A stretch of 64,000 nt of DNA from Bacilli bacterium (lineage in GTDB: Bacteria > Bacillota_I > Bacilli_A > RF39 > UBA660). How positions within the stretch are numbered: position 1 is the stretch's first letter; every line of letters begins with the position of its first letter. A program made the position numbers and the translations under genes. The stretch covers positions 1,846-65,845 of the forward strand of contig JAGBJG010000002.1 in assembly GCA_017934595.1 (NCBI GenBank), given 5' to 3'. The notes beneath the pieces were generated by a model. It was not told the DNA's origin. It searched no databases and worked only from the letters and a program-made list of their open reading frames with translations. Positions 6,311-49,324 of this stretch are shown here, piece by piece.

Positions 6311-6721
6311 TTATCTCTTTGAGAATTGAGGCGCACGACGTGCTGCTTTAAGTCCTGGTTTCTTTCTTTCTTTCATTCTAGGATCTCTAGTTATGAAACC
6401 AGCTCTTTTTAATGTTGTTCTATAGCTATCATCATTACCTTCATTAGCTTCATCATATTGTAGTAAAGCTCTTGTAATACCTAAACGAATAGCTCCAGTA
6501 GCTCCTGTAAAACCACCACCTGTAACATTTGCTTCAATATCAAATGTTTTTTCGTTATTAGTTGCAACTAATGGTTGCATTAAATCCATAACATTAGTTT
6601 CGTAAGGGAAGAATTCTCTAACGTCTCTACCATTAACAGTAATTTTTCCTGTACCAGGAACCATTCTTACTCTTGCAACAGTAGATTTTCTACGACCTGT
6701 TCCAGTATAAACCTTTTTCAT
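6311..6721 (-). CDS. rpsI: 30S ribosomal protein S9
   Basis: [19 protein letters not shown] ... ends PQFSKR; follows rplM. Confidence 0.97.
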
Positions 6722-6730
6722 TTAACCCTC

Positions 6731-7165
6731 CTACTTAACTTCCATAGCACTTGGTTTTTGAGCTGCATGTGGATGTTCTTCACCAGCGTATACAAATAAT
6801 TTTTTAATCATTTGTCTACCTAATCTTCCTTTTGGAAGCATTCCTTTAACTGCTCTTTCAACCATTTCTACAGGATAATTTTCTTTCATTTCACGTGCTG
6901 TTCTTTCTCTTAGACCACCAGTGTAACCACTGTGATTGTAATAAATTTTGTCATCTAATTTGTTTCCAGTTAAATTAACTTTAGAAGCATTGATAACAAT
7001 TACATTATCTCCGCAATCAACGTGTGGAGTATATGTAGGTTTGTGTTTTCCACGAAGTACATGAGCACATTTAGTAGCTAAACGACCTAAGTTAACATCT
7101 GTAGCGTCGATAACATACCAATTTCTCACTACTTCTTCTTTCTTTTGCATATATGTATCTTTCAT
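6731..7165 (-). CDS. rplM: 50S ribosomal protein L13
   Basis: [21 protein letters not shown], a typical L13 N-terminus. Start moved to ATG 7165 (GGAGAAAGGA RBS). Confidence 0.95.
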
Positions 7166-7237
7166 GCTTAATTTTCCTTTCTCCATTATATTAAGTGGAT
7201 GTCCCAAGTCCACTTATATGGGATTAAAAATGTACCA
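7166..7237 (-). promoter_or_regulatory. Structured rplM 5' leader (L13-leader-like)
   Basis: Hairpin AAGUGGA/UCCACUU (7193-7199/7209-7215) interleaved with UCCCA/UGGGA pairing, just upstream of the SD. Confidence 0.45.
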
Positions 7238-7243
7238 GTATTA

Positions 7244-7272
7244 ATTATATGTGAAAAAGCAAATAAAGTCAA
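7244..7272 (-). promoter_or_regulatory. Sigma-A promoter of rplM-rpsI
   Basis: TTGACT - 17 nt - TATAAT on the minus strand. Confidence 0.65.
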
Positions 7273-7309
7273 CAAAAATATAGCAAATTATTAATGAAAA
7301 TTCCTATTT

Positions 7310-7783
7310 TTACACTTTTTGAACTAATTCATTAATAATTATATCTTTTATTCTATCAATATCAGACATAAACAAGTTAATTCCATGCGTTTTAAGCCTT
7401 AGCATACGTCTTAAATTCTTATCAATTCTAACTTTTAACGAATTTATAGCTTGAATTTCTACCCCATCAATATTATGAACATGCGCGACAAATTTTTCTA
7501 TACACGGGAAAGCATTTTGTAAAAGTATTGCTTGTTCAGTACCAAATATTTCACTAACAATGATCGTCTCACAATAATTATGTTTTTTTCTTTTTGCTAA
7601 AATATTCTTATACTTCTCTATTCTAGATGATAGTGGTACAAACCATAATGTACCGTCTATTTTAGCTGCATAGTAAGTAGGTCTGGTATGCCCGTTTTCA
7701 TAGTTTTGCATTAATTTATTATCGTCTACTAAATTAAAGAAATTATCTTTGATATGATATAAATATCCAATCTTTATCTTCAT
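7310..7783 (-). CDS. Type III toxin-antitoxin system toxin, ToxN/AbiQ/CptN-like endoribonuclease (157 aa)
   Basis: MKIKIGYLYHIKDNFF...HTRPTYYAAKIDGTLWFVPLSSRIEKYKNI...LLQNAFPCIEKFV resembles the ToxN/AbiQ/CptN core (aromatic-x-PLSS-x-K). AGGAGG RBS before ATG 7783. Preceded by tandem repeats plus a terminator. Confidence 0.7.
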   Translation of the reverse strand: MKIKIGYLYHIKDNFFNLVDDNKLMQNYENGHTRPTYYAAKIDGTLWFVPLSSRIEKYKNILAKRKKHNYCETIIVSEIFGTEQAILLQNAFPCIEKFVAHVHNIDGVEIQAINSLKVRIDKNLRRMLRLKTHGINLFMSDIDRIKDIIINELVQKV

Positions 7784-7793
7784 ATATCCTCCT

Positions 7794-7834
7794 ATAAAAC
7801 AAAAAGAAGGCTTTGTAAAACACAAAACCTTCTT
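7794..7834 (-). terminator. Intrinsic terminator between the repeat array and the toxin gene
   Basis: 13-bp stem 7804-7816/7822-7834 (one G-U in minus-strand RNA), 5-nt loop, then UUUUUGUUUU. Confidence 0.75.
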
Positions 7835-7938
7835 ATATTTACAACCGGGATATTTTGTTACTCGCACCACCCGAGAGCGAGATTATTTACGACCGGGATA
7901 TTTTGTTACTCGCACCACCCGAGAGCGAGATTATTTAC
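7835..7938 (-). ncRNA. Candidate type III antitoxin RNA: tandem 48-nt direct repeats
   Basis: Copies 7843-7890 and 7891-7938 are identical at 47 of 48 positions, plus an 8-nt partial copy at 7835-7842. Markedly more GC-rich than the surroundings. No ORF. Confidence 0.7.
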
Positions 7939-7961
7939 AACTATGTGCCAAGCACACTATT

Positions 7962-7990
7962 AATATACTATAATCAATTAATAATGTCAA
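7962..7990 (-). promoter_or_regulatory. Sigma-A promoter driving the repeat array and toxin gene
   Basis: TTGACA - 17 nt - TATATT on the minus strand. The -35 overlaps the truA stop codon. Palindrome TGTGC-CAA-GCACA (7944-7957) lies between the -10 and the first repeat. Confidence 0.6.
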
Positions 7991-8715
7991 TAATTAACAT
8001 TTTTTAGATATAATCCACATGCTGGAGCTGTTTTACCAGATGCTTTCCTATCTTCTTTTTCTAGTATTGTTAAAACATCACTAGCTTTTCTTTTACCTTC
8101 ACCCATTTCAATAAGTAATCCAACCATATTTCTAACCATATATCTTAGAAAACCAGTTCCTACAAACGAAATAGTCATTATATCATTTTCTACTTCTATA
8201 TTAGCAGATATAATTTCTCTATCATAGTTATCTCTTACATCATCAGCTGCCACTAAAGATTTAAAGTTATGCATACCTATAAAGTATTTTATACCCTTAT
8301 TCATTGCTTCTACATCTAGTGATTTACCATATTGATAAATATAATCTTTTTCAATTGGATTATATTCACCTAGATTAATCTTATAAACATATTCTTTAGA
8401 TTTAACATTAAATCTTGCATGGAAATTACTATCTACTACTTCTACATTCTTAACATATATATCATTAGGAATTAAACTGTTTAAAGCCATTTTAAGCTTA
8501 TCGGGTGTAATATTAATATCTAAATCAAAATGAGCTTTTTGATTAATAGCATGTACACCTCTATCAGTTCTACCAGAAGCAACAACAGAAGTTTCTTTAT
8601 TATTTAATTTTGTTAATGCAGTTTCTAATTCGGCTTGTATAGTATTAATATCTAATTGTTTTTGATATCCACCATACTTAGATCCATCATAGGAAAAAGT
8701 AATTAAATATCTCAT
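7987..8715 (-). CDS. truA: tRNA pseudouridine(38-40) synthase TruA
   Basis: MRYLITFSYDGSKYGGYQKQ ... ASGRTDRGVHA catalytic motif; follows ecfT as in Bacilli. Confidence 0.95.
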   Translation of the reverse strand: MRYLITFSYDGSKYGGYQKQLDINTIQAELETALTKLNNKETSVVASGRTDRGVHAINQKAHFDLDINITPDKLKMALNSLIPNDIYVKNVEVVDSNFHARFNVKSKEYVYKINLGEYNPIEKDYIYQYGKSLDVEAMNKGIKYFIGMHNFKSLVAADDVRDNYDREIISANIEVENDIMTISFVGTGFLRYMVRNMVGLLIEMGEGKRKASDVLTILEKEDRKASGKTAPACGLYLKNVNY

Positions 8716-9470
8716 AATACCATGAAACTCCTAACTATTAATGTAAGCATTAAAACCACATGAATAGATACTAAATATGTATCATAGAATCCCCATTTAT
8801 TTTGTCTAAAGTTAGTTCTTTTTCTATAAATACTAAATAATCTAACTTCCATAGCGTCAGCTAATTCATCAGCTCTTTTAATAGTTAAAACAAACATAGG
8901 AACAATTAAAGCTTTAATAGCTACTAATTTATCTTTAATATTTGAACTATTATAATCAATACCTCTACATGCTTGAGATTTAAGGATTTTGTTACCTTCA
9001 TCGATGATAGTTGGGATAAATCTTAAAGCAATTGAAATTGATAATGCCATTCTATTAACTGGTACTTTAAATACTTTTAATGGAGATAAGAATTTTTCTA
9101 ATCCATATGTAATCTCAGTAGGTGGAGTCGTAAGTGTTAATATACTAGTATATAAAACTAATAATATTAATCTTGATAACATAATTAATGTTGTTTCAAA
9201 ATATATATTTAATATCATATTAAATATAATTGTAAATAGTAATATAAATCTTAAAGACCTAATTGTCTTAAAGAAATACTTAACTGGAATATGTGAATTT
9301 ATAATCATTAAGATTACTAATATAAATAGCATAGCATTCATAAGCATACTATTCGCGAATAGACACATTAATACAAATGTAATTGTACAAATTATTTTAG
9401 ATAATGGATTCATTAAATGGACACGACTTCTTACAGGGTAATATTTGCCAATAGTTATATTATTTAGCAT
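8712..9470 (-). CDS. ecfT: ECF transporter transmembrane (T) component
   Basis: Polytopic membrane ORF downstream of two ECF ATPases; ACRGID-type coupling motif (SQACRGIDY). Confidence 0.9.
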   Translation of the reverse strand: MLNNITIGKYYPVRSRVHLMNPLSKIICTITFVLMCLFANSMLMNAMLFILVILMIINSHIPVKYFFKTIRSLRFILLFTIIFNMILNIYFETTLIMLSRLILLVLYTSILTLTTPPTEITYGLEKFLSPLKVFKVPVNRMALSISIALRFIPTIIDEGNKILKSQACRGIDYNSSNIKDKLVAIKALIVPMFVLTIKRADELADAMEVRLFSIYRKRTNFRQNKWGFYDTYLVSIHVVLMLTLIVRSFMVL

Positions 9471-12893: not shown

Positions 12894-12911
12894 AATTATC
12901 CTCCTTAACTA

Positions 12912-13862
12912 CTAATCTTCGTCACGGAATCTAAGTCCCATATCTTTAATTTTATCAATAACTTCTTTTAAAGACTTTTTACCTAAATTACGTATTTTCA
13001 TCATTTCTAATTCTGATTTTTCAGTTAAATCACCTAATGTATTGATATTAGCTCTCTTTAAGCAGTTATATGCTCTTACTGAGAAATCTAAATCATCAAT
13101 TGGAGTTTCTAATTTCTTAATTTTGCTGTCTTCTTGTTTAGCGTTCATAATTCCTGTCATATCAGAAATATCACTTAAATTAGTTACGATATTAAAGTGT
13201 TCAATTAATATTTGTGCACCTAAAGCCATAGCTTCTTCTGGACGGATTGAACCGTTTGTAGAAACATTCATAACTAATTTATCATAGTTATCATTTTGAC
13301 CAACACGAGCTGGTTCAACTTCATAACTGATATTATCAATTGGTGAATATAACGCATCGATTGCGATATATCCTAATTTGTTACCTTCTACATATTTTTT
13401 ATTTTCTGTAGATGGAACATAACCTCTACCGTTACCAATAATCATTTCAATATCAAGTTTACCACCTTTTGATACAGTAGCAATTTCTTGATCTTTATTG
13501 ATTATTTCAACATCTGCATCAGTTTCAATATCAGCAGCTGTTACAGTTTTTTCTTCATGAACAGATAGATGAACTACCTTTTCTTCTTCAGAATGATTCT
13601 TAACAACTATGTTCTTTAAGTTTAAGATAATAGTTGTTACATCTTCTACTACACCTTCAATAGTTTGGAATTCATGCATTACACCATCAATTTTGATAGC
13701 TACAATTGCACTTCCTGGTAAACTAGATAACATAACTCTTCTTAAAGCGTTACCTAAAGTTATACCAAAACCTCTTTCTAAAGGTTCTAATTCAAATTTT
13801 CCATAATTATTACTTTCTACATAGTCAGTAATTTTAAATACTGGTTTCTCAAAATTTAACAA
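12912..13862 (-). CDS. rpoA: DNA-directed RNA polymerase alpha subunit
   Basis: GFGITLGNALRRVMLSSLPG and the C-terminal SVRAYNCLKRANINTLGDL; apparent TTG start with GGAGTG RBS. Confidence 0.96.
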   Translation of the reverse strand: MLNFEKPVFKITDYVESNNYGKFELEPLERGFGITLGNALRRVMLSSLPGSAIVAIKIDGVMHEFQTIEGVVEDVTTIILNLKNIVVKNHSEEEKVVHLSVHEEKTVTAADIETDADVEIINKDQEIATVSKGGKLDIEMIIGNGRGYVPSTENKKYVEGNKLGYIAIDALYSPIDNISYEVEPARVGQNDNYDKLVMNVSTNGSIRPEEAMALGAQILIEHFNIVTNLSDISDMTGIMNAKQEDSKIKKLETPIDDLDFSVRAYNCLKRANINTLGDLTEKSELEMMKIRNLGKKSLKEVIDKIKDMGLRFRDED

Positions 13863-13880
13863 ATCTAAACACTCCTCTCA

Positions 13881-14264
13881 TTATCCACGTGGGCGTTTTG
13901 GTGGACGACATCCATTATGTGGTATAGGTGTTACATCAGAAATTGAAGTAATTTCTAATCCTGCAGTTTGTAATGATCTAATTGCAGTTTCACGACCTGA
14001 ACCAAGTCCTTTTACATATACTTCAACTTTTTTCATTCCCATATCTACAGCAGCTTTACCTGCAGCTTCTGCTGACATACCAGCTGCATATGGTGTTGAT
14101 TTTTTACTTCCTTTAAAACCTAAAGTACCAGCTGAAGCCCAACTTATTGCATTACCTTCCATATCACTAATTGTTACAATAGTGTTATTGAATGTTGAAT
14201 GAATAAATGCTTTACCTGCAGGTACATTCTTTTTAGTCTTACGTTTTCTTGCTTTATAAGCCAT
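13881..14264 (-). CDS. rpsK: 30S ribosomal protein S11
   Basis: [14 protein letters not shown] ... [13 protein letters not shown]. Confidence 0.97.
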
Positions 14265-14286
14265 ACAAATAACCTCCTTATTTCAA

Positions 14287-14652
14287 TTATTTTTTCTTAT
14301 TAGCAACTACTTTTCCTTTACCTTTACGAGTACGAGCGTTTCTATTAGTTCTTTGTCCTCTTACAGGTAAACCTTTTTTATGACGAGTTCCTTCATATGA
14401 ATTGATTTCCATCTTAGTTTTAATATTCATATTAACTTCACGACGTAAATCACCTTCAGTTGCATACTTATTTAATTCATCACGAAGTTTTGCGATTTCA
14501 TCAGTAGTTAAATCGCCAGCTTTTTTGTTTTTATCGATACCAGTAGCATCTAAAACAGTATTAGATAAACTTCTACCAATACCATAAATGTATGTTAGAG
14601 CTATTTCAACTCTTTTATTATTTGGTATATCTACACCTTTAACACGTGCCAT
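14287..14652 (-). CDS. rpsM: 30S ribosomal protein S13
   Basis: [26 protein letters not shown]. Confidence 0.97.
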
Positions 14653-14665
14653 TTTTAACCTCCTA

Positions 14666-14779
14666 TTAACCTTGTACTTGTTTATGTTTTGGGTTAGTAC
14701 AAATTACCCTAACTTTTCCATTTCTTCTTATAATTCTACAGTTTTCACACATTTTTTTAACTGATGGTTTCTTTTTCAT
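14666..14779 (-). CDS. rpmJ: 50S ribosomal protein L36
   Basis: Not in the ORF track. Hand translation gives [37 protein letters not shown], located between infA and rpsM. Confidence 0.93.
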
Positions 14780-14794
14780 ATATAATACCTCCTT

Positions 14795-15010
14795 TTATTT
14801 TCGGTAAGTTATACGCCCATGTGTTAAATCATATGTTGACATCTCAACAGTTACTGTATCACCTGGTAAAATGCGGATATAGTTCATACGGATTTTACCA
14901 GAAACATGAGCCTCTACAGTATGTTTATTTTCTAATTCAACTCTAAATTTGCCGCCAGGTAATACTTCTATTACTTTACCTTCGACTTCAATTGTATCAC
15001 TTTTTGCCAT
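14795..15010 (-). CDS. infA: Translation initiation factor IF-1
   Basis: [28 protein letters not shown] ... RITYRK. Confidence 0.97.
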
Positions 15011-15014
15011 TATA

Positions 15015-15761
15015 TCACCTCTTCGTTAATATCTCATAGCCGTCTTTAGTAACGACTACAGTGTGCTCATAATGAGCTGATGGCTCACCGTCAGCAGTTA
15101 CAATTGTCCAGTCATCATCTAATATGCAAACATATCTCTTACCATATGTTAACATTGGTTCTACGGCAATAACCATACCTTCTTTAAGAAGTGGTCCACT
15201 ACCTGCTTTACCATAATTAGGTACTTCTGGATCTTCATGCATATCTGTGCCGACACCATGACCAACTAATTCCCTTACGACACCCATGTGATGTTTAGTG
15301 GCATACTCTTCTATCGCGTGACTAATATCACCAACTCTATTACCTGGTTTAACCATTTTTAAACCTTCAAATAAAGCTTTTTCAGTATGCTCCATCATGT
15401 ACTTTTTCTTATCATCTATAGTACCGACTGCGTAAGTCCAAGCTGAATCACCATGATAACCTTTATAACAAGCTACAATATCAAGTGTAATAATATCTCC
15501 ATTCTTAAGTTTCCTAGGTCCTGGTATTCCATGCACTACCTCATCATTTACTGATGTACATAGCGTTGCAGGATAACCTTCATAACCTAAGCAAGATGGA
15601 GTTGCACCCTTACTTATTATAAAGTCATAGGCTAATTTATCTAATTCCTTAGTTGTGATACCTGGTTTAATAAATTTTTCTAGATAGTGATGTGTTTCAC
15701 CAACTATTTCACCAGCACGTCTAAGTAATTCGATTTCATCTTCATTTCTTATAGTGATCAT
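15015..15761 (-). CDS. map: Type I methionine aminopeptidase
   Basis: Metal-ligand regions [12 protein letters not shown] and HGVGTDMHE. Start moved to ATG 15761 (AGAGGTGA RBS). Confidence 0.95.
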
Positions 15762-15762
15762 T

Positions 15763-16407
15763 CTAATCACCTCTTACTATATCTTCGATGTTTTTAAATG
15801 TTTCTTCTGGTGTTCCATTTGCATCAACGACATATAAAACACCTGATTTTTTATAATAATCAATTAATGGTTTAGTTTTTTCTAAATATGTATTATATCT
15901 AGTTTTATATGTTTCTTCATTGTCATCATCTCTTTTAGTTAAAGATGAACCACATTTATTACATATATTCTCATTAGTAGGCTTCATCCCATCGAAATAT
16001 ATATTATAAGTAGCTCCACATTTAGGGCAACTTCTTCTACCACTAATACGTTTAGCTGCTAACTCTGGATCTATATTTAATTCAATTACATATCCGATAT
16101 CCTTATTTAAATCTTTCAAAATTTCATCATAAGTTTTAGCTTGTTCTATATTTCTTGGAAATCCATCTAATAAATAACCATTAATAGTGTCATTGGAACT
16201 GATACGTTTCTTGATTAAATCAAAAATGATTTCATCACTTACTAACATACCAGCATCCATGATCTTCTTTAATTCTGTATTGCCATTTTCTACTTCAGCT
16301 CTTAAAAGATCTCCTGTAGATATATGAGCAATGTTATATTTTGAACATAATAACTCAGATTGAGTTCCTTTTCCTCCAGCTGGAGGTGCGATTAATATTA
16401 TATTCAT
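15763..16407 (-). CDS. adk: Adenylate kinase
   Basis: P-loop APPAGGKGTQ, zinc lid CPKCGATY...CNKCGS. Confidence 0.96.
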   Translation of the reverse strand: MNIILIAPPAGGKGTQSELLCSKYNIAHISTGDLLRAEVENGNTELKKIMDAGMLVSDEIIFDLIKKRISSNDTINGYLLDGFPRNIEQAKTYDEILKDLNKDIGYVIELNIDPELAAKRISGRRSCPKCGATYNIYFDGMKPTNENICNKCGSSLTKRDDDNEETYKTRYNTYLEKTKPLIDYYKKSGVLYVVDANGTPEETFKNIEDIVRGD

Positions 16408-17663
16408 CTATTTCTTCTTCCTTTTCTATAACTTGTCATTGCAAGTGAACCTTCAATTTGTTTATAAGTTTCAAGTGCAACTCCAACTACAATTAAAAGT
16501 CCTGTACCACCAATGCTTACTGAAGCAGGTAGATCTTTAGCAATCATACCAAATATAATTGGTAATGCAGCTAATATTGTTAAAGCAAATGAACCTACAA
16601 AAGTGATTCTATATAACACATTGTTTATATATTTTAGTGTATCATCACCTGGTCTAACACCTGGGATATAACCACCATTCTTTTGTAAATTATCAGCCAT
16701 ATCTTTTGGTTTTAATTGTAAGAATGCATAGAAGAATGAAAATGCAAATATGAATATAACATATAGTGCAAATCCAACAGGTACACTTGTTACTAAATAT
16801 TTATTTACGAAAGCAGTAAATGCTTCTTTCTTAGCGAAATTAGCAATCATTGACGGTATTGATAACAATGCAGATGCAAAGATTACCGGTACAACTCCTG
16901 CAGAGTTTAGCTTAAATGGTAAATAACTTTGTGCCCCCATAGATGTTGCTTGCTTATTAGAATATTGAACTGGTAGTCTTCTTTCAGCTAATTGGAAGAA
17001 TACAATACCAAGTATAATTACTAAGTAAACAATTACATATATTACAAATAATGTTATTCCTCTAGCAGTGCCATCCATTAAACCTGTCCATGCTTGAGCA
17101 AACATGTTAGGTAAATTAGATATGATACCAGCCATGATGATGATTGACATACCATTACCGATACCTTTTTGAGTCATTACATCACCTAACCACATTAATA
17201 CACAAGTACCTGCAGTTAAAACAAGTGAATAACTCATATAATCCATAACACTACCACCATTCATATAAGTGAATGAATAGATATAACCTTGAACGAATGC
17301 AAGTGCTATACCAGCGATACGTGTTATTTGATTTAATTTGGCTCTACCAGTTCCACCTTGCTTTGATAAATCAGCTAGGTAAGGAACAATATCCATTTCT
17401 AATAATTGAATGATGATTTGAGCAGTGATGTAAGGCATAACACCTAGAGCAAAGATAGAAAACTTTTCTAATGCTCCACCACCCATTACATTCATTAGTT
17501 CAAGAAATCCTAAACTTCTTGTACCAAGTGCGGCTTGATCGATTCCTGGAACTACAATTGCAGTACCAACTTTAAAAACTATCAAGCAAGCAAAGGTAAA
17601 CAAAATACGTTTTTGTAATTCCTTGTTTCTTGGATTAAATATTTGCTTAATTGTTGCAAACAT
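16404..17663 (-). CDS. secY: Preprotein translocase subunit SecY
   Basis: 10-TM ORF between rplO and adk; GIGNGMSIII motif. Confidence 0.96.
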   Translation of the reverse strand: MFATIKQIFNPRNKELQKRILFTFACLIVFKVGTAIVVPGIDQAALGTRSLGFLELMNVMGGGALEKFSIFALGVMPYITAQIIIQLLEMDIVPYLADLSKQGGTGRAKLNQITRIAGIALAFVQGYIYSFTYMNGGSVMDYMSYSLVLTAGTCVLMWLGDVMTQKGIGNGMSIIIMAGIISNLPNMFAQAWTGLMDGTARGITLFVIYVIVYLVIILGIVFFQLAERRLPVQYSNKQATSMGAQSYLPFKLNSAGVVPVIFASALLSIPSMIANFAKKEAFTAFVNKYLVTSVPVGFALYVIFIFAFSFFYAFLQLKPKDMADNLQKNGGYIPGVRPGDDTLKYINNVLYRITFVGSFALTILAALPIIFGMIAKDLPASVSIGGTGLLIVVGVALETYKQIEGSLAMTSYRKGRRNR

Positions 17664-17664
17664 T

Positions 17665-18108
17665 TTAAATCACCTCTGCTTTTCCACCTAGTTTTTCTAT
17701 TTGTTCAGCAGCTTTAGCTGAAAATTTGTGAGCTTTAACAATTACTTTTTTCTCTAAAGTACCGTTACCTAATACTTTGATACCAGATAATTGATTTTTA
17801 ACTAAGCCCATTTCTTTTAATAATTCTGGAGTAATAACTGCTCCATCTTCAAATCTGTTTAAATCAGTCATGTTAATTACAGCATATTCAACTTTGAAAC
17901 GTGCGTTTGTGAAACCTCTTTTAGGAAGTCTTCTGTATAAAGGTAATTGTCCACCTTCGAATACAGCTCTTACTCCGCCGCCGCTTCTAGCGTTTTGTCC
18001 TTTATGTCCTTTACCACTTGTTTTACCGTGACCAGAACTAGTACCACGTCCTAATCTCTTAGTAGCGTGTGTAGCCCCTTCGTTAGCATGTAAATTATAT
18101 AATTTCAT
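17665..18108 (-). CDS. rplO: 50S ribosomal protein L15
   Basis: [27 protein letters not shown]. Confidence 0.97.
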
Positions 18109-18617
18109 TAGATAATCTCCTCTACTTTCTTACCACGTAATTTTGCAACTTCTTCAACTGTTCTTTGTGATTTTAAAGCATTTAATGTAGCATAAGCCAT
18201 ATTAATCTTTGTGTTTGATCCAAGTGATTTTGATAAGACATCTTTAATACCTGCTAATTCTAATACTGAACGAACAGGTCCACCTGCTTTAACTCCAGTA
18301 CCTTCTTTAGCTGGTTTTAACATAACTTTACTTGCTCCTCTAACTCCTACAGCTTCATGAGGAATAGTTCTTTCGTCTACAATTGAAACTCTACATACAT
18401 TTTTAGTAGCAGCAGCAACTGCTTTTTTAATTGCATCAGGTACTTCATTAGCTTTACCTGTTCCAATTCCTACTTGACCTTTTTTATCTCCAACAGCTAC
18501 AGTAGCAGAGAAACGGAAATGACGACCACCTTTAGTTACTTTTGTAACTCTACCAATATTGATAATTTCTTCTTCGAATTGTTTTGGGCGTGGTTCTCTT
18601 TTTGTAGTTTTTTCCAT
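18108..18617 (-). CDS. rpsE: 30S ribosomal protein S5
   Basis: [26 protein letters not shown]. Its stop overlaps the rplO start (TAATG). Confidence 0.97.
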
Positions 18618-18628
18618 ACTTTCCCTCC

Positions 18629-18991
18629 TTAGAATTCTAGTCCATTTTCACGTGCAGCAGTAGCTAATGCTTCTACACGTCCATGATATTGGTATCCACC
18701 TCTATCAAATACGACTTTTGTAATTTTTGCTTTTTTAGCTCTTTTAGCAAGTAATTCACCGACTTTAGTAGCAGCTTCTACATTTCCTCCATTTTTAAGT
18801 TTTAATTCTTTGTCAATAGAAGAAGCACTAACTAAAGTAACAGCTTTTTCATCATCTATAATTTGAGCAAAAATGTTACCATTAGATCTGAAAACATTTA
18901 ATCTAGGTGTTGCACTAGTACCAAATACTTTTTCTCTAACACGTGCATGTTTTGCTTGACGCATTTCATTGCGTGATTCTTTCTTTATCAT
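18629..18991 (-). CDS. rplR: 50S ribosomal protein L18
   Basis: [18 protein letters not shown] ... [19 protein letters not shown]. Confidence 0.97.
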
Positions 18992-19009
18992 GAATAGCTC
19001 TCCTTCCTA

Positions 19010-19543
19010 TTATTTAGAAGCTTTCTTACCAACCTTACGGATAATGTGTTCATCAGTATAACGAATACCTTTTCCTTTGTAAGGTTCTGGTTCTCTTACT
19101 TTTCTTATTTTTGCAGCAAATTCACCGACTAATTGTTTGTCGATTCCTTTTACTAATAATTCAGTATTACTTGGACATTCCAAAGTAATTCCTTCTGGTG
19201 TTACCATTTCTACGTGATGAGAATAACCAGCAGCGATATCTAAATCTTTACCTTTTAAAGCAAATTTATAACCAACACCTACTGCCTCTAATTTTTTCTC
19301 ATAACCTTCAGTTACACCTTTAATCATGTTGTTAATGTTAGCGTTAGCAGTTCCATGGAAATTTTTATATAAATCACTATCTCTAGAAATTTTTAATTCA
19401 TTTCCATTAACTTCAACCTTAATGTGTTTATTAATTTCAGTAGAAAGTTCACCTTTTGGACCCTTAACACTAACTACATTACCTTCAGTTGTAACAGTTA
19501 CGCCTGCAGGTATTGTTAATATTCTATTTCCAATACGACTCAT
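19010..19543 (-). CDS. rplF: 50S ribosomal protein L6
   Basis: MSRIGNRILTIPAGVTV ... EPYKGKGIRY. Confidence 0.97.
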   Translation of the reverse strand: MSRIGNRILTIPAGVTVTTEGNVVSVKGPKGELSTEINKHIKVEVNGNELKISRDSDLYKNFHGTANANINNMIKGVTEGYEKKLEAVGVGYKFALKGKDLDIAAGYSHHVEMVTPEGITLECPSNTELLVKGIDKQLVGEFAAKIRKVREPEPYKGKGIRYTDEHIIRKVGKKASK

Positions 19544-19556
19544 AATATCTTCCTTT

Positions 19557-19952
19557 CTACCAAATGTATGCTAATACTTCTCCACCTAAAGAGTTCTTTC
19601 TAGCATTCTTATCAGTCATAATTCCTTTAGATGTAGAAATTACAGCGATACCTAAACCATTTAAAACTCTTGGTAGTTCTTCAGCTTTAACATATACACG
19701 TAATCCTGGTTTAGAAATTCTCTTTAATCCAGTAATTACTCTTTCTTTCTTTTCACCATATTTTAGTGTTAAAACTATAATATCTTGTGGTTTATTTTTA
19801 TTAATTTTATAATCAGCTATGAATCCTTCTTCTTTTAAGATTTTAGCGATTTCTACTTTAGTTTTTGAAGCGGGTACTTCAACTTCTTTATATCGCATTT
19901 GATTAGCGTTACGAATTCTTGTAAGCATATCTGCGATTGGATCTGTTACCAT
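19557..19952 (-). CDS. rpsH: 30S ribosomal protein S8
   Basis: [17 protein letters not shown] ... GGEVLAYIW. Confidence 0.97.
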
Positions 19953-19970
19953 ATATATCCTCCCTTCATC

Positions 19971-20156
19971 CTACCAGCTTGATTTTTTAAATCCTGGTAT
20001 TTGTCCTTTATAAGCTAGTTCTCTAAAGCAAATACGGCAGATACCATATTTACTAAGTACAGCGTGTGGTCTACCACATCTTTGACAACGTGTATACTCA
20101 CGTACTTTAAATTTAGGTTTACGACTAGCTTTAATTATCATACTTTTCTTAGCCAT
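19971..20156 (-). CDS. rpsN: 30S ribosomal protein S14, zinc-binding type Z
   Basis: 61 aa with [10 protein letters not shown]...CRICFRE. Confidence 0.96.
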
Positions 20157-20174
20157 ATTTTCCTCCTAATTTCG

Positions 20175-20714
20175 TTATTTCTTAAATGGCATACCGAAAC
20201 CCTTTAAAAGATCATACGCTTCTTCGTTAGTTTTTGCTGTTGTAACAAATACTATATCCATACCACGTACTTTTACGACATCATCGTATACAATTTCTGA
20301 GAAAATTAATTGTTCATTTAATCCTAATGTATAGTTTCCTCTTCCATCAAATGATTTATTAGAGATACCTCTGAAGTCTCTTACACGAGGTAATGTAATA
20401 CTAATTAGTTTATCTAAGAAGTTATACATATTTTCACCTCTTAAAGTAACTTTGCATCCGATAGCTTGACCTTCTCTGATTTTGAAACCAGCGATAGCTT
20501 TCTTAGCTTTAGTTACAACTGGTTGTTGACCTGAAATTAATTTTAAGTCATGTACAGCAGCTTCTAATAATTTAGCATTTGAAGCACCATCACCAACACC
20601 CATGTTGATAACAATTTTATCTAATTTTGGAACTTCCATTTTACTTTTGTATGAGTATTTACTCATTAATTCATTTACGATTTCGTTATTATATTTTTCT
20701 TTTAGGCGGTTCAT
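20175..20714 (-). CDS. rplE: 50S ribosomal protein L5
   Basis: [13 protein letters not shown] ... [20 protein letters not shown]. Confidence 0.97.
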
Positions 20715-20731
20715 ATATACCCTCCTTCCAA

Positions 20732-21040
20732 TTAATCAAGATTCTCATTAGATTTTCTTGCGATTCTAATTTTTTTACCTTTTTTATCAGTAGAATGTCC
20801 TACTCTGGTACCCTTATTAGTTTTTGGGTCAATTATCATAACATTAGATGCATTAATAGGCGCTTCCATATCAATGATACTTCCAGCGTTTTGTCCATTT
20901 GGTTTAACATGTTTTTTTATCATGTTGATACCTTCAACGATAACCTTATTTTCTGCTCTTAAAGTTTTGATTATTTTACCTTGTTTACCTTTGTCTTTAC
21001 CAGTAATAACAACTACTTTATCTCCAGTTTTTAAGTTCAT
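20732..21040 (-). CDS. rplX: 50S ribosomal protein L24
   Basis: [23 protein letters not shown]. Start moved to ATG 21040 (GGAGGGTGA RBS). Confidence 0.96.
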
Positions 21041-21055
21041 AATCTCACCCTCCAA

Positions 21056-21424
21056 CTATAGTACTTCCTTAGCAAGTGAAACGATCTTCATAAAATCTTT
21101 ATCACGTAATTCTCTTGCTACTGGTCCAAATACACGAGTTCCGATTGGACTTTTATCATCTTTGATTAATACACAAGCATTGTCATCAAATTTAATGTAA
21201 GATCCATCTTCTCTTTTTAGACCAAATTTACTTCTTACCACTACAGCTTTCACAACTTTTCCCTTGCCAACTGTACCAGTAGGAGTAGCTTTTTTTACAG
21301 TTACAACAACTGTATCACCAATATTTCCGAATTTTCTTTTGCTTCCACCCATTACACGGATTACTGAAACTTCACGTGCACCTGAGTTATCTGCAACTTT
21401 TAAACGACTTTCTTGTTGAATCAT
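21056..21424 (-). CDS. rplN: 50S ribosomal protein L14
   Basis: [19 protein letters not shown]. Confidence 0.98.
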
Positions 21425-21450
21425 ATTAATCCTCCTTTACTTGTTAGCAA

Positions 21451-21708
21451 CTATAGAATAATTGCTTTTTCTACTACTTTTACTAAACGGAAATGTTTAG
21501 TTTTTGATAGTGGTCTAGTCTCAGCGATAACTACTGTATCACCAACACCAGCTACATTATTCTCATCATGTGCTGCATATTTTTTTGAATATTTAACACG
21601 TTTATGATATTTACTATCATTTACATATGTTTCTACTAAAACTGTTATAGTTTTATCATTTTTTGCACTTACAACTTTTCCTGTTAATTCTTGTCTTCTA
21701 GTTTCCAT
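21451..21708 (-). CDS. rpsQ: 30S ribosomal protein S17
   Basis: [20 protein letters not shown] ... [25 protein letters not shown]. Confidence 0.97.
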
Positions 21709-21717
21709 ATTAACCTC

Positions 21718-21912
21718 CTACTTATTTAGTTCTCTCTCACGAAGAATAGTCTTCATACGAGCAACTAGCTTTCTTAATTCATTAATTCTTGAAGGTTTTT
21801 CTAAACTCCCAGAAGCTTGACTAAGACGTAGGTTAAATAATTCAGCCTTAGATTCATCAATTTTCTTAACTAATTCTTCATTAGATAATTTTCTGATTTC
21901 TTCATTAGTCAT
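21718..21912 (-). CDS. rpmC: 50S ribosomal protein L29
   Basis: [29 protein letters not shown]. Start moved to ATG 21912. Confidence 0.95.
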
Positions 21913-22330
21913 TAGTCTCACTCTCCTTCTTTACAAATTTACATCTAATAGGAAGTTTATGCATAGCAAGTCTAAGTGCTTCACGTGCTATATCTTCTGT
22001 AACCCCATCGATTTCAAACATGATTTTACCTTTTTTAACAACTGCAACCCAAACTTCTGGTTGACCTTTACCTTTACCCATACGAGTTTCTAGAGGTACT
22101 TTAGTTAATGATAAGTGAGGGAAAATATTAATCCATACTTTTCCACCACGTTTCATGTAACGTGTCATAGCAACACGGGCTGCTTCAATTTGTTGTTGTG
22201 TAATCCATGCACCTTCTAATGCTTGTAAACCATAACTACCGAAATGTAATTCAGTATTTCCTTTAGCTTTACCATCATAAGGTAGTCTATGAGGACGACG
22301 ATACTTAGTTCTTTTTGGAATTACTGCCAT
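21905..22330 (-). CDS. rplP: 50S ribosomal protein L16
   Basis: [11 protein letters not shown] ... [19 protein letters not shown]. Confidence 0.97.
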
Positions 22331-22982
22331 CTACATTACCTCCCTTATTTTTACTTGGAAGGATTTCACCTTTATAAATCCATACTTTAACACCAATCTT
22401 ACCATAAGTAGTATCAGCTTCTTTATGAGCATAATCAATATCAGCTCTTAAAGTATGTAGAGGAATCATTCCCTCAGTATATCCTTCTGTTCTTGCCATA
22501 TCAGCTCCGCCTAAACGTCCTGATACAGATGTTTTAATACCCTTAGCTCCAGCCTTCATTGTATTTCTGATTGCTTTCTTTTGAGCAACTCTGAATGAAA
22601 CACGATTTTCAATTTGGTGAGCTATATTTTCAGCTACTAAAGCTGCTACCATGTCAGGGTTCTTAACTTCCATGATAGATATTTCAACGTTTTCATCAAC
22701 TAATTTTGATAATTCTTTTTTAATCTTTTCAATTTCTTCACCACTGTGACCAATTACAACACCAGGTTTAGCTGTGTTAATAATTACATTAGTCTTCTTA
22801 GCAGTTCTTTCAATTAGTATACTTGAAACAGATGCGTCTTTTAATTTCTTTTCTAAAAATCTACGGATCTTAACATCATTATTTAAGTATTTAGCAAAAT
22901 CTTTATTGCCAGCATACCATTTTGATTCCCAAGTTTTATTTATTCCAATTCTCATTCCTATTGGACTAACTTTTTGACCCAT
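22305..22982 (-). CDS. rpsC: 30S ribosomal protein S3
   Basis: [24 protein letters not shown]. The 3' end overlaps rplP by 26 nt. Confidence 0.97.
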
Positions 22983-23004
22983 CAGTTTACCTCCTTTGCA
23001 TTAA

Positions 23005-23337
23005 TTATTTTTCGCTTACCTTAACAGTAATATGACTTGTTCTCTTTTTAATTGGATCTACATGTCCACGAGAACCAAATTTCATTCTTTTTAGTACAAC
23101 GCCTTCATTAGCGTATGCTTCAGAAACAATTAAGTTTTCACGTTTTAAACCTAAATTGTTTTCTGCATTAGCGATAGCTGAATCTAATACTTTAATAGTA
23201 TATCTTGCAGCGTCACTATTATAATTATTTAATATGTTACGAGCTTCAACAACACTCTTACCACGTATTAAATCAATAACTAAACGAGCTTTTCTAGGTG
23301 AAATTCTAACACCTTTTGCAATTGCATATGCTTCCAT
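23005..23337 (-). CDS. rplV: 50S ribosomal protein L22
   Basis: [21 protein letters not shown]. Confidence 0.97.
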
Positions 23338-23363
23338 TTTAGTCCTCCTTCCTGATCTCTATC

Positions 23364-23630
23364 TTATTTCTTATCTTCGCCATGACCACCGAATTTACGT
23401 GTCAAAGCAAATTCACCTAATTTATGTCCAACCATATCTTCTGTAACATAAACAGGGATAAATTCTTTACCATTATGAACAGCAAATGTATGTCCGATAA
23501 AGTCAGGATAAATTGTTGAACGTCTAGACCATGTCTTAATTACTTCATTCTTACCAGATTCTTTAACATTTTTTACCTTTTTCATTAAATGTGCATCAAT
23601 GAAAGGTAATTTCTTACTACTTCTAGCCAT
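23364..23630 (-). CDS. rpsS: 30S ribosomal protein S19
   Basis: [44 protein letters not shown]. Confidence 0.98.
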
Positions 23631-23647
23631 TATTTAATCATCCTTTC

Positions 23648-24478
23648 CTATTTATTACGTCTACGAACAATTAACTTGTTACTAGCTTTTTTGCTGTCAC
23701 GAGTTTTATGTCCTAAAGCAGGTTTACCCCATGGAGTAACTGGTCCTTTACGTCCAACTGGAGCTCTACCTTCACCACCACCATGTGGATGGTCATTAGG
23801 GTTCATAACAGAACCACGAACTGTAGGTCTAATACCCATATGTCTTTTTGTACCAGCTTTACCAACTTTAACTAATTCATGATCGGCATTTCCTACTTCA
23901 CCTATAGTAGCTCTACAAGCGCTTAATACTTTTCTAACTTCACCACTTTGAAGTCTTAATAAAGTATATCTTCCTTCATGTCCTAATATTTGAACACTTG
24001 AACCTGCAGAACGAGCCATTTGTGCTCCCTTACCAGGCATTAATTCAACATTGTGAACCATTGTACCTTCAGGTATATTACCAAGCATTAATGAATTACC
24101 AACAATTATATCTGTTGCATCTCCACTAACAACTTTTCCTCCAACTTGTAAACCTTTTGGAGCGATGATATATCTTTTTTCACCATCTGCATAAGTAATT
24201 AAAGCAATGTTAGCTGTTCTATTAGGATCGTATTCGATAGCAGTTACTGTTCCAACAATACCGTCTTTATTTCTTTTGAAATCAATAATACGATATTTTC
24301 TTTTTTCACCACCACCATGATGACGTACGGTAATTCTACCTTGGTTATTACGTCCACCATTTTTCTTTAGTGTAACAACTAATGATTTTTCTGGAGTAGT
24401 CTTAGTTATTTCGTCATTAACGATAACTGACATATTCCTTTGACCATTAGTCATTGGTTTATATGTTTTTATTGCCAT
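23648..24478 (-). CDS. rplB: 50S ribosomal protein L2
   Basis: [14 protein letters not shown] ... [19 protein letters not shown]. Confidence 0.98.
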
Positions 24479-24496
24479 AATATCCTCCTTTTAAGA

Positions 24497-24775
24497 TTAT
24501 AGTTCGATTGAACTACCTTCACTTAATTTAACAATTGCTTTTTTAACTTTATTTGTTTTTCCAACATAACGACCAACTCTTTTTTTCTTTGGTCTAACAT
24601 TTACAGTATTTACTGATTCAACTTTAACATTGAATAATTTTTCTACTGCTTGTTTAATTTCAGTTTTGTTAGCTTTTGTATCAACACTAAATGTAATAGT
24701 ATTTCCTTCTTGAGCTAACTTAGCACTTTTCTCAGTTACGATTGGTGCTTTTATGATATCTCTATAATTATTCAT
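24497..24775 (-). CDS. rplW: 50S ribosomal protein L23
   Basis: [24 protein letters not shown]; between rplD and rplB. Confidence 0.96.
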
Positions 24776-25400
24776 AGTTTAGCACCTCCTCAATAGCTTT
24801 AGCTGCATCTTTAGTAACTACCATCTTATCAGCAGAGATAATATCTAATACATTGATTTCATCAGCTGTTAATAAAATTACGTTTCTAAAGTTACGACTA
24901 GCTAAAACTAAATTTTCATCTAATTCTTTAACTACGATTAAGATATTTTTATCTAATTTTAAATTAGACATTAAATCTTTAAATTCTTTTGTTTTGTTAC
25001 TTGTTAATTTAATATCATCAACTACAATTAGTTCTGATTCAATTACTTTGTAAGATAAAACAGATTTTAAAGCTAAAACTCTTTCTTTTCTGTTTTGTTT
25101 TTGAGTGTAGTTTCTATTTGCATGTGGTCCAAATACTACTCCACCATGATACCAATGTGGTGCTCTTGTACTACCTTGTCTAGCACGTCCAGTACCTTTT
25201 TGTCTCCATGGTTTTGCTCCACCACCAGATACTTCACTACGAGTTTTTGTTTCAGCTGTTCCTTGTCTTTCTGCATTACGAGCAAGTCTTACTGCATCAT
25301 AGATAACAGCATCGTTTGGTTCAATTCCCCAAACTTTTTCATTTAATGTTATATCGCTTGTTTTTTCTCCCTTAATATTTAATACATTAATCTTTTTCAT
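24768..25400 (-). CDS. rplD: 50S ribosomal protein L4
   Basis: [26 protein letters not shown]. Start moved to ATG 25400 (AGGAGG RBS). Confidence 0.96.
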
Positions 25401-25410
25401 GTTGTACCTC

Positions 25411-26196
25411 CTATTCAGCACTTTCTTCTGTAGTAGCTTCTTCAGCAGTTTCTACTGTTTCTTCTGCTACAGTTTCTTCTACAGTTTCAGCTACTTCTGT
25501 AACATCTTCTGTATTTTCAATTACTTCGTTTGATACATAAGTAATTAATTCTTCTCTAGGATTTACTTTATTAGGGTTTTTAACAGCGGATTTAATAACA
25601 ACTAATGCATTTTTAGCACCAGGAACATTTCCTTTTACTAAAATAACATTATTAGTAAGATCAACATCAACTATTTCTAAGTTTTGAATAGTTACAGTTA
25701 ATACTCCCATGTGTCCAGGTAATTTTTTACCTTTGAATACACGCATTGGTCTCATTGTTCCCATTGAACCTGGTTTTCTATGATAATGTGAACCATGTCC
25801 CATAGGACCTCTATTATTTCCATGACGTTTAACAACACCTTGGAAACCTTTACCTTTTGTAGTTCCAGTTACGTCTACAACTTCTCCTGGAGTAAAGATA
25901 TCTGCCTTAACTTCTTGTCCTAAAGCATAATCCTTAATATCTACACCTCTAATTTCTTTAAAGAAGCGCTTAGGTGTAGTTTTCGCTTTATTAGTAATTC
26001 CTAATGAAGCTTTTGTCGCTAACTTTTCACGCTTAGTATCGAAACCTAATTGAATAGCTTCGTAACCATCATTTTCAATTGTCTTAATTTGTGTTACAAC
26101 ATTTGGTTCAACTGAAATAACAGTTACTGGAGTTAATTTACCAGATTTGCTAAATACTTGCGTCATTCCAATCTTACGACCTAAGATTCCTTTCAT
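25411..26196 (-). CDS. rplC: 50S ribosomal protein L3 with acidic C-terminal extension
   Basis: [15 protein letters not shown] ... [12 protein letters not shown] core, then about 55 extra residues rich in E/T/V/A ([25 protein letters not shown]). Confidence 0.95.
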
Positions 26197-26206
26197 ATTC
26201 TACCTC

Positions 26207-39782: not shown

Positions 39783-39859
39783 TGGGGCGCGGTAAGGGGA
39801 TCGAACCCTTGCATAACGGAACCACAATCCGCCGTGTTAACCACTTCACCAACCACGCC
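39783..39859 (-). tRNA. tRNA-His (anticodon GTG)
   Basis: Hand-folded cloverleaf of 77 nt: 8-bp acceptor stem including the encoded G-1:C73, anticodon loop TTGTGGT, T-arm AAGGG-TTCGATC-CCCTT, encoded CCA. Confidence 0.92.
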
Positions 39860-49268: not shown

Positions 49269-49324
49269 ACTATTTCTCCTTCCGCCATGACCTTTTTTGG
49301 CCATAGATATTCAAATGCATTTGT

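Follow-up and report, generated by a model that had tools for sequence, protein, structure and literature searches.

What is encoded between truA and rplM on the minus strand of a 64,000-nucleotide (nt) stretch of contig JAGBJG010000002.1 (assembly GCA_017934595.1, from a Bacilli bacterium; the whole stretch is called the window here), where two tandem repeats precede a gene whose 157-amino-acid (aa) product is labelled in nr as 'hypothetical protein [Bacilli bacterium]'? The data presented in this study suggest, with high confidence, that the roughly 690 bp of minus strand from 7990 to 7310 form an intact chromosomal type III toxin-antitoxin (TA) module of the CptIN family, a reading drawn from sequence comparison and from a predicted protein structure. 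A first-pass annotation of the window had proposed a type III, RNA-antitoxin layout between truA and rplM, and all elements of that layout were found on the minus strand.

The toxin and the layout of the module

The 157-aa protein matches the NCBIfam equivalog profile NF047359, 'type III toxin-antitoxin system CptIN family toxin', with 131.7 bits against a cut-off of 90 (E 1.9e-38) and over 148 of the 150 profile positions. When it was compared with PDB sequences using phmmer, the sole significant match was CptN of Eubacterium rectale (CptN_Er, 4RMO, E 7.4e-16, residues 8-140); ToxN_Bt of B. thuringiensis (4ATO) gave E 0.37 by sequence in that search. An AlphaFold2 model built on 42 homologues (predicted local distance difference test, pLDDT, 87.6; predicted template-modelling score, pTM, 0.85) was then compared with solved structures using Foldseek. 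The best PDB match was again CptN (4RMO_A, E 1.2e-9, template-modelling (TM) score 0.78/0.79, 154 aligned columns), followed by AbiQ (4GLK, TM 0.68), MazF, ToxN_Bt (TM 0.59) and CcdB. As judged from the model, these further matches are the known fold neighbourhood of type III toxins. The first-pass annotation had noted a likeness to ToxN, AbiQ and CptN and had named structure prediction as a check. The prediction agrees with the CptN part of that likeness, as do the profile and the 4RMO match, but the Pfam-A family ToxN_toxin was not matched even at E up to 1, where only sub-threshold noise (HAUS2, IceA2) appeared.

The catalytic triad described for CptN is Ser-(Ser/Thr)-Arg (Rao 2015). Pairwise alignment places Ser52-Ser53-Arg54 of the window protein (PLSSR) on the Ser-Ser-Arg stretch of CptN_Er, making these residues the putative catalytic triad. 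Among the 42 homologues Ser52 is invariant and Ser53 is at least 90% conserved, and the sequences displayed have Arg or Lys at position 54. Sixty toxin homologues lie at 45-55% identity.

The elements upstream of the toxin gene were checked by reading the minus strand of 8400-6900 together with mechanical scans. Their order on that strand is promoter, 5' hairpin, two 48-nt repeats with a 10-nt partial copy, terminator, ribosome-binding site (RBS) and the 157-aa open reading frame (ORF), as follows.

7962 to 7990, minus strand: module promoter, with -35 TTGACA at 7990-7985, a 17-nt spacer and -10 TATATT at 7967-7962
7943 to 7957, minus strand: 5' hairpin GUGUGC-UUG-GCACAU, lying downstream of the -10 and ahead of the array, at the predicted transcription start or just after it
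7836 to 7941, minus strand: cptI array, 106 nt or 2.2 units, with 48-nt units at 7931-7884 and 7883-7836 plus the last 10 nt of a unit at 7941-7932
7893 to 7929, minus strand: predicted pseudoknot 1, with stem 1 (S1) CUCGC 7929-7925 paired to GCGAG 7913-7909 and stem 2 (S2) UCGGG 7922-7918 paired to CCCGG 7897-7893; invariant UGG at 7917-7915 and A-rich loop UAACAAAAUAU at 7908-7898
7845 to 7881, minus strand: predicted pseudoknot 2, identical in sequence to pseudoknot 1, with S1 7881-7877 paired to 7865-7861, S2 7874-7870 paired to 7849-7845, and the A-rich loop at 7860-7850
7794 to 7834, minus strand: intrinsic terminator between antitoxin and toxin, with a 14-bp stem at 7834-7804 followed by the T-run TTTTGTTTTAT
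7310 to 7793, minus strand: cptN gene, with RBS AGGAGG 7793-7788, ATG at 7783, stop at 7312-7310, 157 aa

The promoter, terminator, RBS and reading frame all stand where the first-pass annotation had put them, and the 5' hairpin is an element missing from its list. The promoter matches the consensus at 11 of 12 positions. The same arrangement, TTGAC(A/T)-N17-TATA(T/C)T, typically with TATAGTATATT, was found in 47 of 51 distinct homologous cptN loci. The promoter thus belongs to the module and travels with it. A hairpin and T-run directly follow the second pseudoknot in 49 of the 51 loci; over the 2.2-kb region scanned, the shuffled expectation was 0.5 terminators. By analogy with ToxIN and CptIN, this terminator would set the excess of antitoxin RNA over toxin mRNA. 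The 5' hairpin appears in both the minimum-free-energy and the centroid folds, and its position recurs in many of the 46 distinct homologous leaders that were folded (judged by eye, uncounted), the feature being kept and the sequence not. It is probably a 5' stabiliser or a folding insulator that would be removed by the first processing cut.

Two other reading frames overlapping the array were rejected as artefacts: a 186-aa ORF with a GTG start at 7870, which spans the terminator and one repeat, and a 50-aa plus-strand ORF (7855-8007), which is a by-product of the repeats. No second cptN copy or CptI motif was found elsewhere in the 64-kb window.

A predicted repeated pseudoknot as putative antitoxin

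The two 48-nt units are directly adjacent and identical at 47 of 48 positions, as the first-pass annotation had reported; its 8-nt partial third copy is 10 nt long, and its array boundaries of 7835-7938 become 7836-7941. The array has 44% G+C compared with 28.7% for the window. By our own estimate, about 1e-17 adjacent repeats matching at 47 of 48 positions are expected by chance in a 64-kb AT-rich window.

Covariation was used to ask how each unit folds. In an alignment of 56 distinct homologous units (A2), pairs were counted for an H-type pseudoknot, and the control was to slide the 3' partners by 1-3 columns. In the proposed register 92.5% of the cells were paired, against 25-49% in the slid controls. 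The four core S2 pairs had no unpaired cell in any of the 56 units and showed 17, 6, 7 and 23 double substitutions, and S2 holds 5 of the 7 pairs that show double changes. The S1 pair 16-36 switches cleanly, being U-A in 46 units and C-G in 10. The remaining three core S1 pairs are invariant among the 56 units, and the outermost S1 pair is unpaired in 29 of them. This supports the prediction that each CptI repeat folds as an H-type pseudoknot with an A-rich loop.

The unpaired segments are conserved as well. An A-rich loop with a conserved pyrimidine joins the S1 3' arm to the S2 3' arm, reading UAACAAAAUAU in the window and UAAUAAAU.AU in relatives, and UAA(U/C)AAA (the pattern AA-pyrimidine-AAA) is conserved among the aligned units. 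The S2 5' arm is separated from the S1 3' arm by UGG(U/C), whose four nucleotides are invariant or nearly so. A further motif lies in the single-stranded linker, where A-U is invariant and the A before it is almost always kept; it is GUAAAUA in the window and mostly AAAUGUU in relatives. The array holds three copies of GUAAAUA (7938-7932, 7890-7884 and 7842-7836), on both sides of both pseudoknots, and these copies are probably the sites at which CptN would process its antitoxin. Two full units need three cut sites, and the one ahead of the first pseudoknot comes from the 10-nt partial copy, which explains the 0.2 of a repeat. CptN_Er leaves a 2',3'-cyclic phosphate on a 3'-terminal A, which suggests cleavage after an A of the linker motif.

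The order of promoter, structured RNA, terminator and ORF would also fit a transcription-attenuation leader, so that repeats and terminator might form a cis-acting attenuator or riboswitch-like leader of an unrelated gene, or else a two-repeat CRISPR-like array. However, no Rfam family was matched by the repeats, either at E up to 10 over 6500-8800 or at the gathering threshold over the whole window, and the weak matches all fell on the terminator hairpin. The ORF downstream is assigned to the CptN toxins, what is repeated is two tandem copies of one pseudoknot, and no alternative anti-terminator pairing was found. For the CRISPR-like version, the repeats adjoin each other without spacers, and the window's unannotated ORF list showed no evident cas genes. 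The toxin assignment and the pseudoknot covariation together effectively refute both versions, to which we give next to no weight.

Metagenome contigs were scanned with the toxin alignment, which gave 352 relatives, and 80 loci were fetched. In these 80 loci (L082-L161), two homologous units of 48-51 nt were found at the same position in 76, about 110-190 nt ahead of the toxin gene. The pair of CptI units falls below 80% mutual identity in 61 of the 76. In 67 the S2 arms differ between the units and each unit is still self-complementary, as in L086, where AUGGA/UCCAA stands against CCGAG/CUCGG. Many of the 76 loci are near-duplicates, so these counts are not independent. The window's own units are nearly identical, unlike those of most relatives, and a 2025 survey (PMC12283969) describes cptI repeats as mostly perfect. 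As a separate observation, several homologous toxin genes have small unannotated ORFs on the far side of the repeats, 270-590 nt upstream (L171 4267-4410, L174 4444-4587 and L165-L170 4415-4732; two contexts that are unrelated have 47 aa and a further one has 105 aa); none is present in the window.

Some findings weigh against a CptIN assignment and have to be set beside those above. Identity to the sole solved CptN is only about 28%. The CptN assignment rests on NCBIfam, PDB similarity and predicted fold, and Pfam, PADLOC and Rfam gave no match (no PADLOC model was usable, and a weak NsnC match with E 0.005 was disregarded). In CptN_Er, Tyr104 specifies and stacks on the scissile adenine, and it aligns with His103 here, which is invariant in the 42-sequence subfamily. 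The adenine-binding loop of CptN_Er (Asp81/Ser85) is not conserved, Asp81 falling in a gap and Ser85 lying opposite Gln84 in a variable loop. The invariant UGG(U/C) is an extra segment inside the pseudoknot, whereas the description of E. rectale CptI (CptI_Er), with its one-base loop 1 (L1) and coaxial stems, mentions none; this suggests that the RNA fold here is a variant, not a copy, of CptI_Er. It should be noted that Tyr104, Asp81 and Ser85 come from one solved member and do not define the family. Comparison of the sequences thus points to a CptN of a distinct subfamily marked by His103, and this residue and the altered Asp81/Ser85 loop suggest that cut-site specificity may differ from that of CptN_Er.

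The departure at Tyr104 could also be taken as a sign that the locus is a decayed, non-functional type III TA remnant, and truncated CptN genes are known in the family. However, the ORF is not truncated (157 aa, where the family averages 148.6), and Ser52 and the other invariant columns of the 42-sequence alignment are kept, as are Ser53 and Arg54. The invariance of His103 across that alignment makes it a subfamily trait. Promoter, both predicted pseudoknots, terminator and RBS are intact, and an identical protein occurs on 7 contigs. Decay is therefore very unlikely, and an intact CptIN module is the reading kept below.

The truA-rplM insertion and the possible role of the module

The gene order running toward the module is two ABC ATPase genes, a CbiQ-family gene (ecfT) and truA, followed by the module, rplM and rpsI; the 7 contigs with the identical toxin share this context. 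The downstream boundary lies outside the module:

7166 to 7272, minus strand: native rplM promoter and leader, with promoter TTGACT-17-TATAAT at 7272-7244

An alignment of the junctions (A3) showed the module to be an insertion that fills precisely the gap running from the truA stop codon to the conserved native rplM promoter and leader, both of which are intact. The TGA stop of truA (7987-7989) sits within the module's -35 hexamer (7985-7990), so the insertion abuts the truA coding sequence without a spacer and truA transcripts must enter the antitoxin array. The terminator scan found none between truA and the array and none between cptN and rplM, which suggests that read-through into and out of the module is likely. 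No transposase or integrase ORF adjoins the module, and the short direct and inverted repeats at the site look like AT-rich chance matches.

The first-pass annotation had pointed to the truA-rplM spacer of related genomes as a useful comparison. A scan of 185,579 species-representative genomes for TruA yielded 80 loci (L002-L081), none above 69% TruA identity. Nearly all are from uncultured metagenome-assembled genomes (MAGs), most of them labelled Bacilli bacterium, and other labels are Tenericutes, Erysipelotrichaceae, Candidatus Faecisoma, Coprosoma, Pelethosoma and Firmicutes bacterium CAG:822. cptN was found at truA-rplM in none of the 80. rplM lies within 3 kb of truA in 49 of them, with a spacer of 128-262 bp in 38 and of 567-1990 bp holding various unrelated ORFs in 11. 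No rplM was found in the other 31, where either synteny is broken or the sequence (contig or fetched stretch) stops too early. In several of those 31, truA is immediately followed by other genes; in L006 and L032 it is followed by long unannotated ORFs that may be mobile-element genes. The truA-rplM junction is normally short yet is a recurrent site of small insertions in this lineage, and the location of the module is a lineage-specific curiosity. The host is an uncultured low-G+C, reduced-genome gut bacterium whose relatives include MAGs under the labels 'Bacilli bacterium', 'Tenericutes' and Candidatus Faecisoma, the last placed by NCBI in Mycoplasmatota incertae sedis.

Homologous loci occupy other sites. 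Among 89 homologous cptN loci, none has truA, rplM, rpsI or ecfT nearby. Where neighbours were called, the homologues are single and adjoin genes of housekeeping or metabolism (following gatCAB, between two tRNA-synthetase genes or following PPDK), and some loci have variable flanks or integrase/transposase fragments. A toxin homologue was found in none of 50,697 GenBank phage genomes, IMG/VR gave only 3 toxin matches, and among 72,556 plasmid records there were 8 distant matches at 26-33% identity. The CptN family is essentially chromosomal, as published. The window toxin (7310-7783, minus strand) also matches PHROG phrog_33519, of unknown function (E 1.1e-14); prophage-adjacent or misassigned sequence may be the source of that entry.

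What is shown here is that the toxin belongs to the family, judged by profile, sequence and predicted fold, that the architecture is conserved, that covariation supports the pseudoknot and that the module is an insertion; processing, stoichiometry and toxicity are modelled on the CptIN/ToxIN family. In such a model the module's own sigma-70 promoter would drive a short transcript consisting of the 5' hairpin and then cut site, pseudoknot, cut site, pseudoknot and cut site, and truA read-through would very likely add to it. Most transcripts would end at the strong terminator, giving antitoxin in excess, and a minority would read through so that CptN is translated, as in the family. CptN, an endoribonuclease with a ToxN/Kid fold and a Ser-Ser-Arg site, would cut the precursor at the three GUAAAU motifs, probably after the invariant A and leaving a 2',3'-cyclic phosphate, and would remain locked with the resulting 48-nt pseudoknots in a closed complex that keeps it inactive. 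If antitoxin supply dropped through phage transcription shut-off, stress or loss of the locus, the labile RNA would be lost, and the freed CptN would cleave cellular or phage RNAs and arrest growth.

The role of such a module, which can be argued here by analogy, may be of two kinds. One is abortive-infection phage defence, in which phage transcription shut-off would deplete CptI and CptN would destroy phage and host RNA. Systems alike in fold and architecture (ToxIN, AbiQ and TenpIN) make their hosts phage-resistant. In addition, the array lies directly downstream of a co-oriented ribosomal-protein/ecf/truA string with no terminator found between them, so antitoxin supply would track host transcription. 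However, the statement in the first-pass annotation that CptIN acts by abortive infection finds no backing in published work: two cptIN loci gave no resistance to six coliphages in E. coli, and CptIN_Er gave none to more than 200, although E. coli is a heterologous host. Among the titles and abstracts listed by a literature search on CptIN and phage from 2018 onward, none reports a CptIN phage phenotype. No PADLOC model was matched, and no defence island was found near the window module or the homologous loci inspected, whose called neighbours are mostly housekeeping or metabolic. Defence is thus a tentative proposal.

The other kind is an essentially selfish addiction element, whose loss kills the cell and whose only benefit is to stabilise the surrounding DNA. 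CptIN_Er raised plasmid retention in E. coli from about 50% to 100% while showing no phage phenotype. Homologues are single at unrelated chromosomal sites, with 0 of 89 at the window's site, the pattern of a small mobile selfish unit. However, transposase, integrase and flanking repeats were not found at the site, the core string truA-rplM requires no stabilising, and a missing phage phenotype in a heterologous host is weak evidence. Pure addiction is a good possibility that stops short of even, and we rate it and phage defence as about equally likely.

A further idea would join the site to the RNA. The module may then be more than a random passenger. If the array is topped up by truA read-through from what is among the busiest transcription units of the cell, and the cptI terminator ends that unit, the array might act as a gauge of housekeeping transcription, with CptN firing upon phage or stress shut-off. 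Separately, a His103 subfamily with two diverged pseudoknots in most relatives might form complexes with two different RNAs and have its own cut specificity. Both parts are speculative and we consider them improbable.

Three other features of the window are ordinary housekeeping content. A long run of short co-oriented ORFs at about 12900-26200 (minus strand), upstream of ecf-truA, resembles the main ribosomal-protein cluster, though it is unannotated. There is an L31-Firmicutes ribosomal-protein leader at 49276-49306 (minus strand, 37.8 bits) and a tRNA-His(GTG) at 39783-39858 (minus strand). The rplM leader at 7166-7243 (minus strand) is itself conserved in relatives, with GGUACAUU just after the -10, then UCCCA, then a hairpin with UGGGA in its loop. 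In an alignment of 35 sequences (A4) all 6 hairpin pairs have compensatory changes and the hairpin is 97% paired. UCCCA and UGGGA could close an H-type pseudoknot, for which no covariation was seen. No Rfam match covers this leader, and the matches at E up to 10 over 6500-8800 do not include L13_leader. Possibly the leader serves an L13 autoregulation specific to this lineage.

Comparison with known type III systems

The locus is a clean, intact example of the already described CptIN family in a little-studied host, and it does not represent a new class of system. It gives a name and a mechanism to a protein carried in nr as hypothetical, and it adds a poorly known gut lineage with reduced genomes to the hosts of CptIN. 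The comparative set, with its 352 metagenomic relatives and 56 distinct RNA units, provides covariation support for the CptI pseudoknot beyond a single crystal structure and shows that most loci of the subfamily have two non-identical repeats. These by-products (pseudoknot covariation, the three-cut-site logic of the '2.2 repeats', the His103 subfamily and the diverged repeat pairs) are perhaps more useful to specialists than the locus itself. The compact module is also a candidate for use in kill/rescue tests and as a sequence-specific RNase tool.

The first-pass annotation had regarded an array of about 2.2 units as minimal and a 48-nt unit as unusually long. Neither view survives comparison with the 33 cptIN loci of Blower 2012 (Table 2), where the repeat averages 44.8 nt (40-48), the copy number averages 2.4 (1.9-3.4) and the toxin averages 148.6 aa; the values of this locus (48 nt, 2.2 copies, 157 aa) sit within the published CptIN ranges. 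The same study reported that CptI sequences are not alignable within the family. Toxicity and its neutralisation by the cognate RNA have been published for the cptIN loci of E. rectale, C. catus and R. torques.

CptIN of E. rectale (4RMO; Blower 2012, Rao 2015) is the closest known system. It shares a homologous toxin, the Ser-Ser-Arg triad, a chromosomal position and the order of promoter, about two tandem repeats, terminator and toxin. Its RNA is likewise built of H-type pseudoknot units with a long A-rich loop interrupted by a pyrimidine. The A-rich loop in the window recalls the A-minor-twist loop with 'kink' U30 of the CptI_Er crystal structure. The E. rectale complex contains 2 protein and 2 RNA molecules. 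However, the CptI_Er unit is 45 nt compared with 48 nt here, its host is one of the Lachnospiraceae and not a reduced-genome uncultured Bacilli/Mycoplasmatota-like lineage, and a site within the ecf-truA/rplM-rpsI string is found here, unlike in E. rectale.

More distant systems share the general plan. ToxIN of Pectobacterium atrosepticum and Bacillus thuringiensis would, by analogy, have in common with this module its operon logic, toxin fold class, self-processed repeated pseudoknot RNA and inhibition by its own cleavage product. It differs in its Pfam family (ToxN_toxin, unmatched here), its 36-nt ToxI units (P. atrosepticum), its 3:3 triangle complex and a proven abortive-infection role. 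AbiQ/antiQ of Lactococcus lactis provides the second-best structural match (4GLK, TM 0.68) and a type III architecture in a Firmicute, but identity is about 15% and the repeat family is another one; the depositors call AbiQ a lactococcal anti-phage endoribonuclease. TenpIN shares long repeats (39-57 nt) in about 2 copies, which the 2025 survey describes as non-identical, as they are in relatives of the window locus. However, its toxin belongs to another family by sequence, and it confers phage resistance in E. coli.

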